Of a DNA stretch of 64,000 nucleotides, positions 1,632-55,088 are shown piece by piece. This stretch comes from Elusimicrobiota bacterium (GTDB taxonomy: Bacteria; Elusimicrobiota; Elusimicrobia; Elusimicrobiales; UBA9959): contig JAAYVG010000035.1 in NCBI GenBank assembly GCA_012517285.1, positions 7,647 to 71,646 on the forward strand, written 5' to 3'. A program made the position numbers and the translations under genes. Position 1 is the first letter of the stretch; each line of letters opens with the position of its first letter. Below the pieces are notes generated by a model. The model was not told the origin of the DNA, did not search any database, and worked only from the letters and a program-made list of their open reading frames with translations.

Positions 1632-2366
1632 ATGTTTAAAAGTTTTAACAGAATATGTCTTCTGCTCATCGGATCTGTTTTTATATCATCATACTCATAT
1701 GCTGATGATCCGATGATTGCTGTAAGCGCTGATGTTGTTGAGATAAGCGGATCGTTACAGAAAACAAATGGCTTTGGCTGGAACGAAACATTTGATTTTG
1801 CTGAGAAAGAGATACCCGGTATATTAAAGGTTGGAGATTTTGAGAGAAAGACACAGATTGCAACATCGCTTAAACTTCTTGAAACTGAGGGAAAGGCTCA
1901 GCTTTTATCAAATCCAAAGATAATTGTAAAAAATGCCCAGCAAGCTAATTTTACGGTTGGTGGAGAAATCCCTATACCGTATTCCAATAACCAAGGTGTT
2001 GGTGCAGATTTTAAAAAGTTTGGTGTTATACTTCAGGTACTCCCTACGGTTAATCCAAACAAAAAGGACAATGTTGATATACAGATAGCCTTGGAGGTTT
2101 CAAACCCTGATTATTCAAAACCAGTTGTTGTTTCTAACACAACAATACCGTCAATGGTAACAAGGCAGATTCAGACTGAGGTTGAGATAAAAACTGGTGA
2201 AACAATAGTCATAGGTGGTCTTAAGAAAAGTTCAAGGAATGTTTCAATAAAAAGGGTCCCGGTGCTTGGTAGCATCCCGCTGATAGGGGCACTCTTTACA
2301 TCAAAGGATGTTGTGGAGGATCAGAGCTCATTGTTTTTGTTCATAACATTTGAGATTATTAAATAG
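1632..2366 (+). CDS. cpaC: Secretin (CpaC/RcpA family), unusually short at 244 aa
   Basis: It has a signal peptide. Secretin-domain motifs are present: GGEIPIPY, FKKFGVILQVLPTV, VPVLGSIPLIGALFTS and SSLFLFITFEII. No room is left for N-terminal ring domains. Confidence 0.8.
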   Translation: MFKSFNRICLLLIGSVFISSYSYADDPMIAVSADVVEISGSLQKTNGFGWNETFDFAEKEIPGILKVGDFERKTQIATSLKLLETEGKAQLLSNPKIIVKNAQQANFTVGGEIPIPYSNNQGVGADFKKFGVILQVLPTVNPNKKDNVDIQIALEVSNPDYSKPVVVSNTTIPSMVTRQIQTEVEIKTGETIVIGGLKKSSRNVSIKRVPVLGSIPLIGALFTSKDVVEDQSSLFLFITFEIIK

Positions 2367-2671
2367 GGGCACTGAAAAAAGTCTAACGGTGGAGATTTTA
2401 TAAATGAGAAACTGTATAAAAAGTTTAAAAATTTATATCAAAACTGCAAGGTTTTTGACATTTAATGTTAAAAAAGCATGCAGTTTTTACCACCTTTTGG
2501 CTTTAAATTGCCAATTTTTGGCTACGACTTCGTCGCTCGTCGTTTACAGACCTTATTCAGGTATGCTCACTCCTCGCTCCTCGTCTCGCCCGCCTGCCTA
2601 CGCCCAAGCGGCTTCGGCAGGCTTAAAAAATTGGCTAATTTATAGCACAAATAGACTTTTTCAGTGCCCCC
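2366..2671. repeat. TIR-bounded intergenic element, copy A (MITE-like)
   Basis: GGGGCACTGAAAAAAGTCT at 2366-2384 is the inverted repeat of AGACTTTTTCAGTGCCCC at 2653-2670. TAAATA direct repeats sit at 2360-2365 and 2672-2677. The internal sequence is homologous to the elements at 9.9 and 20.5 kb. Confidence 0.8.
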
Positions 2672-2686
2672 TAAATAAATTTTAAT

Positions 2687-4882
2687 ATGGCTAATAAAAT
2701 AATTACATTTACAGGACCGAAGGAGGGTGTTGGCAAAACATCCATAGCCTTGAATGCTGCTGTGGCATATGCTCACCTTGAAAATAAAAATGTAATAATT
2801 ATTCCTATGGATCATCTGATAAGATACGAACATGATAAAATGCTTGCCATACAGAACACCCCATCCGTGGTTGATATACTTAGGGTTTTAGGAAGAGATT
2901 CAATATCAAGTGCGGGTATGCTTTTAAAGGGTAAAATTCCATTTTCTCAGTGGGGTGTTGGAGTTCTTCCTCTTGCCAAAAAGAGACAGGATCTTTTAAA
3001 GCTTTCACCTGATATAATAAATGGGCTTCTTTCAAGGTTGTCACAGAACTTTGATATATTTATAGATGTTGATCCATACTATCCTATGCAGTTTTTTTCA
3101 TTTGATATATCGGACCTTATTTTCTGGGTGACAAATGCTAATGCAAACTCTCTCAACGCAACTGCAAATGTTTTTAGGGATATAAACGAGATGCATTTTC
3201 CTCTATCAAGATTTGAGGCTGTGGTAAATCTCTATGATATGCCAGGTTCACTTCCACCGAGGGATGTAGAAAAATTTTTCAAACAGCTTGGTAAGGAAAT
3301 TCTTGCTTTTATGCCGTGGGAGGATGAACTGCCTGCGCTATTTAATCAAAACAGAATACTGATAACAGAAAATCCAGACTGTCAGTGGATAAAAATTTTA
3401 AAGATAATTTTAACAAGGATTATTGAACTTCAACCTCTTGAAAAAAGCTGGTCAAGCTCTATGTCACAGGTGGAGTTCACGCATGGTAGTGATCTGCTCT
3501 GGAAGCAGGTGGAGAGATCGTCTGATTTTTTTGTTGATACACCAAATCAGCCTCAGGCAAAGAAGGTTAATGTGGAGCTTCCTCCATGGTGGGAGGAGCT
3601 TAAGATGAAGGTTCACTCTGATGTTGTTTCTCTTCTTGAAACTGAAAGGATAAAGGTGAGTGATGATCCCACGCAGAATCAAGAAGTAAGAAAGAGGGTG
3701 GACTCAATAATAAATTCACTCCTACAGAAGGAGAATCAGTATCCCTTGACGAGGGATCAGCGAACAAGATTTATCTCTGAGCTCATTGATGAAATACTTG
3801 GACTCGGTCCTCTCGAAGAGCTTATGAGGGATGCTGCTGTCACAGAAATAATGGTTAATTCACCGGATAAGATTTATATAGAAAGAGCTGGCAAACTTGT
3901 GAAAACAAAGTACAGGTTTAGGGATGATGATCAGATAATTCAGGTTATAAAAAGAATTGTTGCACCACTCGGCAGAAGAATAGATGAGTCGGTTCCACTT
4001 GTTGACGCAAGGTTAAAGGATGGCTCACGTGTCAATGCTATTATTCCTCCGCTCGCAGTGAGTGGTCCAACCCTCACAATAAGAAGATTTTCTCAAAAGC
4101 CATTTACAGATAAAGACCTTGTTTCAAAGGGTAGTCTTTCAACGGATATGGTTGATTTCATAAAACTCTGTGTTCTTTTAAGGAAGGATGTCATAATATC
4201 AGGTGGAACCGGCACAGGTAAAACTACATTTTTGAATATGTGTTCATCATACATACCTGAGGATGAGAGAATAATAACTGTTGAGGATACTGCAGAATTG
4301 AAGCTTCAACAGGATCATTGGGTTCGTCTCGAGTCCCGTCCTCCAAACATAGAAGGAAAGGGAGAGGTTACCATAAGGGATCTTGTAAAAAACTGTTTGA
4401 GAATGAGGCCAGATAGAATAATAGTTGGAGAGGTAAGAGGATCAGAAGCCCTCGATATGTTACAGGCCATGAACACAGGTCATGAAGGATCTCTTGCAAC
4501 AATACACGCCAACTCTGCAAGGGATGCCCTAACCCGTCTTGAAACAATGTGCTTAATGGCTGGTGCTGAGCTTCCTATATGGGCTCTTAGAGAGATGATT
4601 GCAAGTGCTGTTCACGTGATAGTTCAGCTTACAAGATTTTCTGATGGAACAAGAAAGGTTACATCAATAACGGAGATAACAGGAAGGGATGAAAATAAAA
4701 TACTGACGCATGAGATTTATAAATATGTTCAGACATCTGTTGATGAAAATGGTGTCGTTCATGGATATTTCACAGCAACTGGTGAGCCTCCTAAGTTCTA
4801 TCCTGACTTTAAAACTCATGGTATGGATGTTCCTATAGAGATGTTTTGGACTGAGGAGCAGAAGAAGCAGCGGTCACAGTAA
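2687..4882 (+). CDS. cpaF: Fusion of a TadZ/CpaE-like ParA/MinD domain with the CpaF/TadA secretion ATPase
   Basis: The N-terminus [20 protein letters not shown] is a deviant Walker A of the MinD/ParA type. The C-terminal half carries [24 protein letters not shown] and [12 protein letters not shown], which are the CpaF/VirB11-type motifs. Confidence 0.85.
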
Positions 4883-9883: not shown

Positions 9884-10232
9884 TTTTTTAGTGGCCCCTA
9901 AATAGGGTTCACTGAAAAAGTCTATTTGAACAATAAAACAAGGATTTTCGTTATGAGGCGAAAAAACGACCGAGCATACTACAAAGTAGTCTGTAAGCAA
10001 GTTCTGACGAAGCCGCAGTAGAAAAGCATTGAGTTTATTGCCAAAAGAAAGATAAGAAAAGTGCAAGGTTTTTGCAACATTACCTCAAAAATCGTGCACT
10101 TTTAAAGCAATAATACACTATAATCAAGACAACTATTCATTTGGAAAATTATCTTTCGTTAGAGTTTTTCAGTGAACCCTAAATAACTAAATGACCAGAT
10201 AACTATATAAGATAAGTCTTTCAGTGGAGTCT
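9884..10232. repeat. TIR-bounded element copy B (9905-10179) plus solo terminus remnants
   Basis: GGGTTCACTGAAAAAGTCT at 9905-9923 is inverted relative to AGAGTTTTTCAGTGAACCC at 10161-10179. TAAATA sits at 9899-9904 and 10180-10185. Solo terminus-like pieces occur at 9889-9898 (TAGTGGCCCC) and 10213-10230 (AGTCTTTCAGTGGAGTCT). Confidence 0.75.
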
Positions 10233-20031: not shown

Positions 20032-20486
20032 AGATAGTACTTTTAAACCCTGATATACCTCAGAATACCGGGAACATTGGAAGAACATGTATCGCAAATG
20101 ATATTGAGCTCATACTTGTTGGAAGATTGGGATTTGAGTTATCGGACACGAAGCTTAAAAGGGCAGGCCTTGATTACTGGAAGCATATAAAGCTAAAGGT
20201 TTATAAAAGTTTTGATGAATTTCTTTTTGAGGTCAAAAGCGAAGAACAGTTTCTTTTTTTCTCAACCCACGGAAAAAAACTTTTTTGGGATGTCCCGTTT
20301 AATGAAAACTCCTACCTGATATTTGGTAGCGAGACAAAGGGATATCCACCTGAGTTTTATGAAAGATACATTGATAAAATGTACAGAATACCTATGAAAT
20401 CAGAGAAGGTAAGATCATTAAACCTTGCCACATCATGTGGAATTGTTTTATATCACGCCATATACAGATTAAATATGGATCACTGA
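20028..20486 (+). CDS. trmL: SpoU-family tRNA 2'-O-methyltransferase (TrmL-like)
   Basis: MKIVLLNPDIPQNTGNIGRTC, FGSETKG and LNLATSCGIVLY are SPOUT motifs. The stop codon lies inside the repeat terminus CACTGA. Confidence 0.85.
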   Translation: MKIVLLNPDIPQNTGNIGRTCIANDIELILVGRLGFELSDTKLKRAGLDYWKHIKLKVYKSFDEFLFEVKSEEQFLFFSTHGKKLFWDVPFNENSYLIFGSETKGYPPEFYERYIDKMYRIPMKSEKVRSLNLATSCGIVLYHAIYRLNMDH

Positions 20487-20884
20487 AAGAGTCTAACAGT
20501 GGAGATTTTATAAATCAGAAACTGTATAAAAAGTTTAAAAAATTATATCCAAGCTGCAAGGTTTTTTTTAGTATTGTTAACAAATTCCATTAAGGTTTTT
20601 TACAAAATTGACAAAAAAAAGACGATCGTCTTTTTTTTGTCAATTTTTTTATACACACATTCCCATAGGAGAAAACTTAATTTTAATACTAATTTTAAAC
20701 TAAAAATTTACATTTTTGGGACGATCGTCTTTTTTTTGTCGATTTTTTTATAAGCCCAAAACAACCAAAGCGGTTACTTTTGGTTCTTTCCTAAACAACT
20801 AAATAACAAAATAACCAAATAACTATCCTGTCTGTCTTCATCTCGATGATTACATCTTGATGTTTAAGACTTTTTCAGTGCCCC
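20477..20884. repeat. Composite TIR-bounded element, copy C
   Basis: The left end GGATCACTGAAAGAGTCT (20477-20494) plus ~85 nt is about 90% identical to copy A. The right end is AGACTTTTTCAGTGCCCC (20867-20884). The interior carries a 44-bp palindrome, a partial twin-hairpin module and a CATCTTGATG module. Confidence 0.75.
20604..20653. terminator. Perfect 44-bp palindrome followed by a T-run, a possible bidirectional terminator
   Basis: AAAATTGACAAAAAAAAGACGA|TCGTCTTTTTTTTGTCAATTTT at 20604-20647 was checked base by base, then TTTTTA follows. It lies between convergent trmL and pyrD. Confidence 0.45.
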
Positions 20885-21886
20885 CTGATTTAATATTTTT
20901 TTAACCACTGATGGACCTTCATATATAAACGATGTGTAGATCTCAAAAAGATCAGCCCCGAGATTTTTTCTTTCAGAGACATCCATCGAGTCAAATATCC
21001 CTCCACTTGATATAATTGGTACCTTCTTAGAGGTATCTCTTATTTTTTGAAGCTTATTAACCGAAAGATTTTTTAGTGGTTTTCCACTCAGTCCACCCTC
21101 AATTTTATCAAAATCCCTTCGCTTAATTATATCCCTTCTTTTTGTTGTGTTCGTAGCTACAATTCCACAGTTATATCTTTCACATAAAAGTGTTATATCA
21201 AATACTTCGTTATCAGCTATATCAGGTGATATCTTTATAAACAGCGGTTCTTCACTATCAATTTCTCTAAGCGAGTTTATTATTTTGTGTACATAATCAC
21301 TTAAATTTCCAGCATATGAATTCACATTTGGACAGCTTATATTTATAACAAAAAAATCCCCCACATCTTTTAATATTTTAAAACATTCTGATATGTTTTT
21401 GTGAGCATTGATGAAGTCGCATTTGTTATCCTTTGCTATGTTTATTCCCATCGTAATGCTTGGCTTTCCTTTTTTATCTATATTTTTCCGAACTTTAATA
21501 GCTCCACAGTTGTTAAGTCCCATGTGATTCACTATCCCATACTCATCAACAATCCTGAAGATCCTCGGCTTTGGGTTGCCCTGCTGCGGGTTTAATGTCA
21601 CACTGCCAATTTCCATAAAACCAAATCCAAAGGATTCGATAACGTCATAGATCTCTGCATTCTTATCAAAACCAGCAGCAAATCCAAGACAGTTTTTAAA
21701 TTTAATACCATTCACTAAAACAGGTTCTGAAGAATTACTGTAAATATATGAAATTAATTTTTTTATAATATCAAGCTTTGAAGAGATTTTTAATCCTGAA
21801 AATATCATACCGTGAGCTACCTCAGGATCAATCTTAAAAAGTATTGGCTTAGCAATTTTGTTATATAAAAAATCTACCATTCTCAT
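20864..21886 (-). CDS. pyrD: Dihydroorotate dehydrogenase (class 2-like)
   Basis: LFKIDPEVAHGM, the GFMEIGSVT-like FGFMEIGSVTL, and GLSG/GGI motifs are present. The start was chosen at the M of MRMVDF. The ORF track extends to 21901 and an M at 21880 is also possible. The last 6 codons are repeat-encoded. Confidence 0.88.
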   Translation of the reverse strand: MRMVDFLYNKIAKPILFKIDPEVAHGMIFSGLKISSKLDIIKKLISYIYSNSSEPVLVNGIKFKNCLGFAAGFDKNAEIYDVIESFGFGFMEIGSVTLNPQQGNPKPRIFRIVDEYGIVNHMGLNNCGAIKVRKNIDKKGKPSITMGINIAKDNKCDFINAHKNISECFKILKDVGDFFVINISCPNVNSYAGNLSDYVHKIINSLREIDSEEPLFIKISPDIADNEVFDITLLCERYNCGIVATNTTKRRDIIKRRDFDKIEGGLSGKPLKNLSVNKLQKIRDTSKKVPIISSGGIFDSMDVSERKNLGADLFEIYTSFIYEGPSVVKKILNQGALKKS

Positions 21887-53387: not shown

Positions 53388-53786
53388 ATGGATATAGGCA
53401 AATATCGGCAGGAGTTAAGAGTATTGTTTGATGATGAGAGGGAATTAATAGAGACATTTTTAGTGATAAGGGGATTAGTTAAGGGTGGGATATACAAGAC
53501 GAAACTCAAGTGTGGCAAAAAGGGATGTAAATGTGAAAGAGGGGAATTACATGAAGTATGGATGCATTATCGGAGCGAGGGAGGTAAGGCAAAAACAAGG
53601 ACAATAAGGAAAGAAGAAGTCCAAGAGTATGAGCGATATACAAGGAACTACCAGAGGTACCGACAATCACGAGCGGAGTTAATAAAGCTACATAAGAAGC
53701 AAATAAGATTGATAGACCTTATAGAGGAAGGGTTGAGGAAGGAGAACAGTGGAATAGAGAAGAAACTTTTTAAGAAGAAGAGATAA
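53388..53786 (+). CDS. IS-associated small basic protein with a Cys-cluster (zinc-ribbon-like)
   Basis: A strong SD, KLKCGKKGCKCERGELHEVW, and an Arg/Lys-rich helical tail. It ends 12 nt upstream of the transposase gene. Confidence 0.65.
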   Translation: MDIGKYRQELRVLFDDERELIETFLVIRGLVKGGIYKTKLKCGKKGCKCERGELHEVWMHYRSEGGKAKTRTIRKEEVQEYERYTRNYQRYRQSRAELIKLHKKQIRLIDLIEEGLRKENSGIEKKLFKKKR

Positions 53787-53798
53787 AAAGGAAGAGGA

Positions 53799-55088
53799 AT
53801 GAAACAGATACTATACAAGACAATGCGGCACTTTTTTCCAGAATATCGGCAATGGTTAAGGGATATGAAAGATCCCCGAAAGAAGAATATGACGAGCTAT
53901 GAACTACCAGTGATGATATGGGTAGGGATATTGTTATTTTTATTAAAATTAGGTTCCAAAAGGCAGATTAACTATGAATTAGACACCGAAGCGATGATAA
54001 ATAACATAAAACTATTAAGCAGAGAAAAGTTAGAGCGTATTCCTTATGATGGGACACTGGAATACCTACTTGAACGGCTTGATCCAGTAGAACTCACAAG
54101 AATAAGGGAAAAAATGATAAACAGGTTAATCAGGAATAAAAGTTTTAGTAAGTGTAAGATTAACGGGAGTTACCCGATAGCAATAGATGGGAGTGGATAT
54201 TTAACATTTAAAGGTTATCACTGTCCACATTGTTTAAAAAAGAAGAAGAAAGGTAAGGTTCTATTTTATTACCATTCTATATTGGAAGCGAAAATAATAT
54301 CTAATGGGATGGCATTCAGTGTTGAGACAGAATTCATTGAGAATGAAAGTGAGGGAGTTTTGAAACAAGATTGTGAACTTAAAGCATTTTACAGGTTAAG
54401 TGAGAAACTAAAGAAAAAGTTTCCACAACTTGAGATATGTTTATTATTAGATAGTTTATATGCAAACAAACCAGTTATAGACATATGCAACAAAAACAAA
54501 TGGAAATATATAATAACATTCAAAGAGGGTTCTATGCCAGAGGTTTATAAGGAATATGAAACCCTAAAAAAGATCAATCCTGATAAACATATTGAATACA
54601 ATAACAATGGGATAAAACAAAAGTTTTATTGGGCAGATAATGTATTACAATATATTGGCAGCTTAGATGTAAATGTAATAGAATGTATTGAAATGAAAGG
54701 GAACCAGCAAAAAAGATTTGTATGGCTTACAAACTTTAGTGTTGATAAATATAGTGTTAAAGATATAGCAAAAGGAGGTAGACTACGATGGAAGATTGAG
54801 AATGAAGGATTTAATGCACAAAAAAACTGGGGATACAATCTGGAACACCCTTACAGTAAACACATTGTTGCGTTAAAGAACTTTTACCTTCTTTTGCAAA
54901 TTGCTCACATTATCAATCAACTGATGGAAAATGGCTCCCTGCTCATGGAAGAAATCAAAAAGTCATTTGGCAGTATTAAGAATTTTACAAAAAGACTACT
55001 TGAGTCTTTAAGAACTTCTGTATTTGATATGACAGAAATTCAAATGATGGACACTTTGAAATTCCAAATACGCCTTCGTGGTCCTTAG
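53799..55088 (+). CDS. DDE transposase (IS4/IS5-superfamily-like)
   Basis: Candidate catalytic triad regions are PIAIDGSGY, LLLDSLYAN and GRLRWKIENEGFNAQKN (the RWxIEN block is typical of DDE_Tnp_1-type enzymes). Confidence 0.8.
   Translation: MKQILYKTMRHFFPEYRQWLRDMKDPRKKNMTSYELPVMIWVGILLFLLKLGSKRQINYELDTEAMINNIKLLSREKLERIPYDGTLEYLLERLDPVELTRIREKMINRLIRNKSFSKCKINGSYPIAIDGSGYLTFKGYHCPHCLKKKKKGKVLFYYHSILEAKIISNGMAFSVETEFIENESEGVLKQDCELKAFYRLSEKLKKKFPQLEICLLLDSLYANKPVIDICNKNKWKYIITFKEGSMPEVYKEYETLKKINPDKHIEYNNNGIKQKFYWADNVLQYIGSLDVNVIECIEMKGNQQKRFVWLTNFSVDKYSVKDIAKGGRLRWKIENEGFNAQKNWGYNLEHPYSKHIVALKNFYLLLQIAHIINQLMENGSLLMEEIKKSFGSIKNFTKRLLESLRTSVFDMTEIQMMDTLKFQIRLRGP

Follow-up and report, generated by a model that had tools for sequence, protein, structure and literature searches.

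The window analysed here, a stretch of 64,000 nucleotides from an Elusimicrobiota bacterium (assembly GCA_012517285.1, contig JAAYVG010000035.1, positions 7,647 to 71,646), carries an operon of tad pilus genes in which a 306-bp element (2366-2671) stands between the secretin gene and the motor ATPase gene, flanked on both sides by a direct duplication of TAAATA. We consider it highly probable that this element is a miniature inverted-repeat transposable element (MITE), inserted at a TAAATA that overlapped the TAA stop codon of the secretin gene and mobilised in trans by a transposase of the DDE type. An earlier, sequence-only reading of the window had held that the element behaves like a non-autonomous transposon, a view now supported by terminal inverted repeats, duplications that are specific to each copy, further copies in the genome and empty sites in relatives.

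The left terminus of the element, GGGGCACTGAAAAAAGTCT, lies at 2366-2384, and the right terminus, AGACTTTTTCAGTGCCCC, at 2653-2670, the latter being followed by a single extra C at 2671. Together they form terminal inverted repeats of ~19 bp of the type GGGG(G)CACTGAAAAAGTCTA. Their complementarity is perfect over 14 nt (2366-2379 with 2657-2670), and the repeat finder extends the pairing around this core, imperfectly, to ~19-20 nt with one 1-nt offset. Both the repeats and the TAAATA flanks had been pointed out from the letters before, and our own inspection and the repeat finder return the same positions. The size is that of a MITE: 306 bp, with a sole open reading frame (ORF; 93 codons) that matches no Pfam family. 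The sense orientation of the element is defined by this frame, which follows a Shine-Dalgarno (SD) motif, and it is the direction of the tad genes. The features of the locus are as follows.

1632-2366, plus strand: Tad secretin gene, 244 aa (Pfam Secretin PF00263, E 1e-41).
2360-2365, no strand: left target-site duplication TAAATA (from the letters, from a 312-bp skip with 6 ambiguous letters in empty alleles, and from the single TAAATA in the related genome G001).
2366-2671, plus strand: the 306-bp element, very probably a MITE, that is, a non-autonomous transposon (from family copies, empty sites and folding).
2366-2385, plus strand: left terminal inverted repeat GGGGCACTGAAAAAAGTCTA.
2404-2685, plus strand: open frame of 93 codons.
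2440-2487, no strand: inner hairpin AAAACTGCA...TGCAGTTTT followed by a T-run (17-nt arms, 88% complementary).
2505-2640, no strand: inner GC-rich module within its own inverted repeat, AAATTGCCAATTTTT / AAAAATTGGCTAATT.
2593-2622, no strand: 30-nt GC-rich palindrome CCTGCCTACGCCCAAGCGGCTTCGGCAGGC.
2652-2671, minus strand: right terminal inverted repeat, reverse complement GGGGGCACTGAAAAAGTCTA.
2672-2677, no strand: right target-site duplication TAAATA (from the letters and the 312-bp skip).
2687-4882, plus strand: TadZ-like ParA/MinD domain fused to a CpaF-type ATPase, 731 aa (T2SSE, E 2e-67; CbiA, E 1e-7).

Alignment of the genomic copies resolves the element into a mosaic of three parts, namely a conserved left arm of ~140 nt, a GC-rich core and the 30-nt palindrome. 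The core, whose inverted repeat pairs 2505-2519 with 2626-2640, is also present inside another MITE family with different termini. The inner hairpin with its T-run at 2440-2487 looks like a terminator on either strand.

When the flanks were joined across the element and searched against 40 relatives, two genomes of the same genus (G001 and G002) and three of the same family (G010, G014 and G023) aligned straight through the junction; the empty site of G001, ATAATTAAATAAATTTATG, holds one TAAATA. Empty alleles also exist within the species. One DNA contig from an anaerobic digester (run X2; 19 kb, depth 111) and another from groundwater (run X4; 21 kb, depth 107), which differ from the window by 1-5 bases per ~700 nt, skip exactly 2360-2671, the 312 bp that make up the element plus one TAAATA, with 6 letters fitting either side. 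The insertion itself is present in runs X1 and X6, and in JGI and Logan contigs from three further samples at 99.7-99.9% identity. Judged from these contigs, the insertion is recent and a natural presence/absence polymorphism within the species, and the empty state is the ancestral one. The sequence-only reading had suggested a search for empty sites and had reckoned with the opposite outcome, a locus filled in all relatives with no empty site to be found; the five related genomes and the conspecific contigs from X2 and X4 settle this in favour of insertion.

Copies of the element occur throughout the genome (1.96 Mb, 34% GC), in which the 306 bp gave 61 BLAST matches. Seven of these are full-length matches besides the window copy, at 80-94% identity. 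Contig breaks account for three more left ends and four more right ends, with flanks that pair as TAAGTA, TAATTT and TAAATA; these broken ends represent at least three or four further, nearly identical copies at which the assembler broke. Counted as ~9 full-length copies inside contigs and at least 4 at breaks, the family totals ~13 copies at dispersed loci, each with its own duplication, which answers the copy count by BLASTN that had been proposed along with the MITE interpretation. Its consensus terminus reads GGGGGCACTGAAAAAG(T/C)CTA, or in full GGGGGCACTGAAAAAGTCTA, and the left end of the window copy has one G fewer and one A more. Eight of nine family copies point in the same direction as the gene whose 3' end they adjoin; over all terminus-sharing elements this orientation bias (19 of 30) is not significant. 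One copy, on contig C32, has a different core, and another (G000:C35:29890-30480) holds a nested 282-bp MITE of another family, with ends ACTGAGGGTCACTAA..., which sits at the boundary between left arm and GC-rich core and whose length is divisible by 3.

The family belongs to a wider group of elements in which common termini of ~20 bp, GGGnnCACTGAAAAAGnCTA, surround interchangeable inner modules. A fuzzy search found 138 terminus-like sites in the genome, and pairing anchored on the core CACTGAAAAAG yielded 38 paired elements of 105-591 bp. Prominent among these is an abundant family of 271-278 bp with the same termini and a different inner sequence, one member of which lies in the window:

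9905-10179 (G000:C6:17551-17825), opposite orientation: sister-family MITE, 275 bp, termini GGGTTCACTGAAAAAGTCTA, perfect TAAATA duplication.

Elements of 274-277 bp in this genome resemble the 306-bp element in their termini, in a 6-bp duplication of the TAAATA type and in the layout of the left 45 nt (terminus, AACG, purine-rich block, ATG), but differ from it in the remaining inner sequence and in an open frame of just ~55-65 codons.

Two further arrangements of the termini touch on gene borders. A composite of 409 bp with termini of this kind at its ends (window 20477-20885; G000:C6:28123-28531) touches or overlaps an ORF end on either side (distances -10 and -22), and repeat termini therefore contribute gene ends there. 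On the minus strand of G000:C47:91305-91343, a solo MITE left end (terminus, GGAG, ATG) forms the SD and start codon of tgt, the gene for tRNA-guanine transglycosylase.

At the tad locus, the insertion has changed the junction between the two genes. The secretin now stops at a TAG (2364-2366) made of the last TA of the target copy and the first G of the element, as the letters and the ORF list agree and as had been read before. In silico deletion of 2366-2677 gives ...GAG ATT ATT AAA TAA ATTTTAAT ATG, letter for letter the compact junction, with a TAA stop 8 nt ahead of the ATG, that the sequence-only reading had reconstructed by removing the element and one TAAATA. The secretin protein is unaltered by the insertion; the stop codon alone is changed, from TAA to TAG. 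The distance from this stop to the ATPase start, an ATG at 2687, was 8 nt before the insertion and is 320 nt now. The lack of a recognisable SD in front of the ATPase gene had been reported for the filled state; it holds, but it was not created by the insertion, since the start is without an SD in the filled allele, in the empty alleles and in all relatives compared. In the alignment, the ATPase of these relatives starts 0-12 nt past the secretin stop. The missing SD together with this short spacing suggests, at the level of sequence, that translational coupling was obligatory in the ancestral operon. Translation of the ancestral ATPase thus probably depended on its being coupled to the secretin stop, 8 nt ahead of its start, and this coupling, itself a probable one, has probably been disrupted by the present distance of 320 nt.

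An additional reading, compatible with a MITE, is that the element acts as a translational stop-restart cassette, which would explain why it is tolerated at gene ends and inside operons. Its left 41 nt (2366-2406) contain one stop in each frame (TGA 2373-2375, TAA 2384-2386 and TAA 2401-2403), a GGAG at 2391-2394 stands 9 nt ahead of the ATG at 2404, and the 93-codon frame that begins there crosses the whole element and the right repeat to end in a TAA at 2683-2685, 1 nt before the ATG of the ATPase. At tad, the frame would lead ribosomes up to a point 1 nt short of the ATPase start, replacing the lost coupling to the secretin. The reading gains from the copies of the family, six of nine of which have an ORF of at least 72 codons from that ATG. 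The same reading frame is stop-free over 70-96 codons in eight of nine, and in the C35 copy it runs for 184 codons through the nested 282-bp insert, a length reached by none of 2000 shuffles. The co-orientation of eight of nine family copies with the adjoining gene points the same way. Set against this, 216 of 5000 composition-preserving shuffles of the window copy alone reach an equally long open frame, a marginal result. The peptides vary freely between copies, which argues that there is no purifying selection on their sequence; the ATG is lost in two copies and one copy is frameshifted; the orientation bias is not significant over the whole terminus-sharing group; and the frame may be a relic of the transposase gene of a parent element. 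We regard the cassette as unlikely on balance. Still less likely, in our judgement, is its fullest version, a MITE family shaped for harmlessness in operons by a three-frame stop, an SD-ATG restart, an exit frame kept open even through a nested MITE, restored coupling at tad and accumulation of a stable folded RNA. If true, the element would be a mobile 'stop-restart and RNA-stability' module and not plain junk.

The duplications themselves bear on the kind of transposase involved. Full copies of the family are flanked by TAAATA, TAAGTA, TATTTA (three times, once with a mismatch) and TAGTTA. Across the 38 paired elements of the group, perfect 6-bp duplications were found in 15 and 7-bp duplications in 3. 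All duplications seen, those of broken copies included, comprise TAAATA, TAAGTA, TATTTA, TAGTTA, TACTTA, AATTTA and TAATTT besides the three 7-bp cases. The composition of 18 clean duplications is T17 A18 n n T18 A17; nine of them are TAAATA. The two inner positions vary among copies and yet agree across both sides of each copy. That the flanks are a 6-bp duplication, or alternatively a TAAATA target specificity, had both been offered from the window alone, and the copy-specific duplications together with the share of TAAATA show both to be true. The idea that TAAATA might be part of the element in all copies conflicts with the variation at the inner positions, with AATTTA and TAATTT and with the duplications of 7 bp. 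Since TAnnTA includes stop codons, many copies lie exactly at gene 3' ends.

These figures also weigh on a MITE of the IS630/Tc1-mariner type, for which only the TA would be duplicated and the remainder would belong to the element or reflect a target preference. Directly beside both termini TA hardly ever varies, and it is self-complementary, so that TAnnTA-element-TAnnTA formally admits a reading in which an element with TA at its ends duplicates 2 bp. The duplications that depart from this pattern, however, are exact direct repeats with a non-TA dinucleotide at the junction on one side, namely AATTTA/AATTTA (C10), TAATTT/TAATTT (C46/C21) and the 7-bp repeats AGAAATA, TAACCTA and TATAATA, and for this reason the duplication is genuinely one of 6-7 bp with a strong TAnnTA target preference, and not one of TA. 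A 2-bp model would require for every exception a mutated terminus that happens to match the far flank. The natural empty site, moreover, lacks 312 bp with 6 ambiguous letters, and a profile scan for DDE_3 (PF13358), the IS630 transposase domain, returned nothing in the genome while control genomes responded. A mariner-type origin is accordingly very improbable.

The sequence of the element predicts a strongly folded transcript, with a minimum free energy of -108 kcal/mol (z = -9.6; about -9.6 on both strands). RNA of the window copy is present in metatranscriptomes. Contigs identical to it, of 297 nt (X5) and 294 nt (X8), were recovered from activated sludge, and a third metatranscriptome (X12) holds a 251-nt contig of the element with a single difference and with flanks that are not covered. 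Word depth over the element is 28, 15 and 3 in X5, X8 and X12, as against 4.3, 6.6 and 0 over the secretin gene. In X5 and X8 coverage of the upstream tad genes is nearly unbroken, at ~4-6.6, and that of the downstream genes is patchy, at 0-3; in two metatranscriptomes the depth of the element exceeds that of the flanking mRNA 2-6-fold. A consensus promoter scan of the element returned no sigma-70-like site, only a weak terminator-like hairpin at 2497-2514. In neither X5 nor X8 is there an RNA contig of the family copy C44b, which speaks for transcription driven by the operon and against a strong promoter carried by the element itself. Taken together, these data suggest that the element is co-transcribed with the operon, that its folded segment accumulates and that the insertion is moderately polar. 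The suggestion that the insertion could rewire pilus expression through a promoter, a terminator or an RNA stands in so far as RNA of this very copy exists and the downstream genes are transcribed, though more weakly; the promoter part of it finds no consensus site within the element.

Strong folding and an RNA signal above that of the flanking mRNA are also what one would expect of a resident gene for a noncoding RNA, or of a cis-regulatory RNA of the tad operon, that is not mobile DNA at all. Such an RNA would have to be reconciled with five related genomes and conspecific strains that lack it at this locus, and with the ~13 dispersed copies at unrelated loci, each with a duplication of its own. 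An Rfam scan of 2200-2850 gave no relevant match, only a lone snoRNA match at chance level (E 0.84) outside the element, and the C44b copy shows no sign of its own promoter. We hold a resident RNA gene to be an even remoter prospect than a mariner-type MITE.

The last alternative is a REP/REPIN-type element moved by a RAYT, a single-strand transposase like those of IS200/IS605, and it is suggested by the 30-nt palindrome (GCCTGCC..GGCAGGC), which is GC-rich, has a GTAG-like foot and recurs at ~85 dispersed, standalone sites genome-wide. REP/REPIN insertions, in contrast, have neither a target duplication nor long terminal inverted repeats, both of which are present here, the duplications being specific to each copy. 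The palindrome is an inner passenger: in copies of the 306-bp MITE it occurs in one orientation, in the opposite one or doubled as a tandem pair, while the outer ends stay constant. This variation suggests either that the loop inverted or that insertions took place independently at one spot. REP-like character was found in the palindrome alone and not in the element as a whole, no search for a RAYT gene having been made; a REP/REPIN origin is almost certainly wrong.

Turning to the distribution of the MITE group, the exact terminus pattern GGNNCACTGAAAAAGNCTA has 72 matches in this genome and none in both genomes of the same genus; two other genera hold 3 and 2 solo matches, and the remaining 36 relatives hold none. 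Among 185,579 species representatives, the left-end pattern matched once, at chance level. In JGI metagenomes it marked 35 stretches, of which the MITE-like ones lie on contigs of the same species (Ga0302250); those few that other samples contributed are either solo termini or matches at chance level, and the paired elements are all of MITE size, with no transposase inside. The burst of this terminus group appears specific to the lineage, apparently to one species. Solo terminus-like motifs, mostly GG(G)TTCACTGAAAAAGTCTA, do occur in other genera, at loci L054-L058 (in the genomes G008 and G014) and at L065, L076 and L080 (in other metagenomes). Those of G008 lie just beyond gene ends, several being followed by purine-rich, heptad-like repeats, and the G008 and G014 motifs have no partner end in the 0.6-4 kb fetched on each side.

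Profile scans and searches beside the termini were used to look for the enzyme. The ORFs beside every unpaired terminus are ordinary host genes only (e.g. tgt, glmM, and genes for a penicillin-binding protein and a histidine kinase), and comparison of the genome with itself revealed no multi-copy insertion sequence (IS). A scan with the DDE_Tnp_1 profile found only the IS of the window itself (53388-55088; DUF6788 plus a weak DDE_Tnp_1 match), whose ends are unrelated to those of the MITE; it was correct, as had been stated, that these ends differ and that the window holds no matching transposase. The match to DDE_Tnp_ISL3 is a decayed stump at C47:98237 with the end GGGTCATTTGTAAA, and the two rve genes found by the profile scan have no such termini nearby. 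A duplication of 6-7 bp fits none of the transposase families tested here.

One candidate was initially promising, an IS256-like 'Zn-variant' transposase that lies beside a degenerate MITE arm on contig C22. It is divergent, with an N-terminal CxxC...CxxC motif, and is present in pieces (C33:1-69, C22:37254-37733 and the end of C26) of a partly assembled IS of ~1.2 kb (C33:1-170, C22:37170-37735 and C26:7844-8007). Homologues of 334 aa occur in G367 and G386, other genomes of the Elusimicrobia phylum, and have no Pfam match above threshold. As a partner it was rejected: its own inverted repeats, AAAATCGACAAAAAAAAGACGATCGTGGGATAA, belong to a different repeat family (AAAATCGACAAAAAAAAGACGATCG...), and the ends of the homologous IS in G386, 49 nt long, are unrelated. 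The ends of the IS256-like IS belong to the 'ACGATCGT' repeat family, which also occurs elsewhere in the genome. A mini-element of 110 bp (C44:80726-80835) has TAAATA on its left and MITE termini as its ends, and its interior shares 85% identity with the 5' leader of the gene for the IS256-like transposase, which we take as a lead and not as evidence.

The insertion of a MITE at tad may then be pictured as follows. A DDE-type transposase acting in trans, a type to which the termini and the duplication point, would have inserted the element at the TAAATA overlapping the TAA of the tad secretin gene. The cut would have been staggered by 6 bp, and repair would have duplicated TAAATA on either side. 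The event is recent, with the insertion fixed in some wild populations of the species and absent from others, and the element is part of a burst of short elements with common termini of ~20 bp that appears species-specific. It would be transcribed with the operon, probably as a folded RNA segment that outlasts the flanking mRNA, and would moderately lower expression of the downstream tad genes.

Several points weigh against this account. No transposase with matching termini was found in the 97%-complete genome, the 40 relatives, the 185,579 species representatives or the JGI metagenomes. An autonomous partner IS is usual but not obligatory for MITEs, and orphan MITE families exist. The window copy is 94% identical to its nearest genomic paralogue, whereas the flanks of filled and empty strains differ by 0.2-0.6%, so that the donor copy is not in the assembly. 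The RNA contigs do not reveal the strand, each has one depth averaged flat over its length, and DNA carry-over is possible; they also break at the repeated termini, and co-transcription with the flanks is thus not directly visible. The weaker coverage downstream could equally reflect ordinary decay along the operon.

MITEs are a known kind of element, and what is new here is an apparently orphan, terminus-sharing group of them in Elusimicrobia; a full-text literature search returned no paper describing MITEs in this phylum. At this locus a single transposition in an uncultured bacterium is documented with unusual completeness, through natural alleles of one species, filled and precisely empty, from different metagenomes and through metatranscriptome contigs over the insert. 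An orphan group with a TAnnTA duplication of 6-7 bp in seemingly one species points to a transposase that was recently active. The filled and empty wild strains, in turn, offer a ready-made comparison for polarity and translational coupling in a tad pilus operon.

Among known systems, IS of the ISNCY/ISDol1 and IS1634 types make duplications of 5-7 bp according to the ISfinder tables. They are like the present elements in the 6-7-bp duplication and the G-rich ends, which is no more than a lead, and no transposase of either type was found. TIMEs and MICs derived from Tn3 share with the 306-bp element termini that start with GGGG and a short AT-rich duplication. Tn3-family ends, however, measure ~38 bp with a duplication of 5 bp, as against ~20 bp and 6-7 bp here, and the element does not class as a TIME or MIC; no Tn3-type transposase stands beside any terminus, although no profile search aimed at Tn3 was made. 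The familiar bacterial MITEs are the Correia elements of Neisseria, RUP of Streptococcus pneumoniae and ERIC/IRU of enterobacteria. The element described here differs from them in a TAnnTA duplication of 6-7 bp in place of TA, in unrelated termini (GGGnnCACTGAAAAAGnCTA), in a partner IS that was not found and in its host, an uncultured species of Elusimicrobia. It is like them in its short size (~300 bp), its terminal inverted repeats, its target duplication and its lack of a transposase, and it also shares with them dozens of copies that lie mostly at gene borders, polymorphism between strains and, probably, a folded RNA that is transcribed together with its neighbours.

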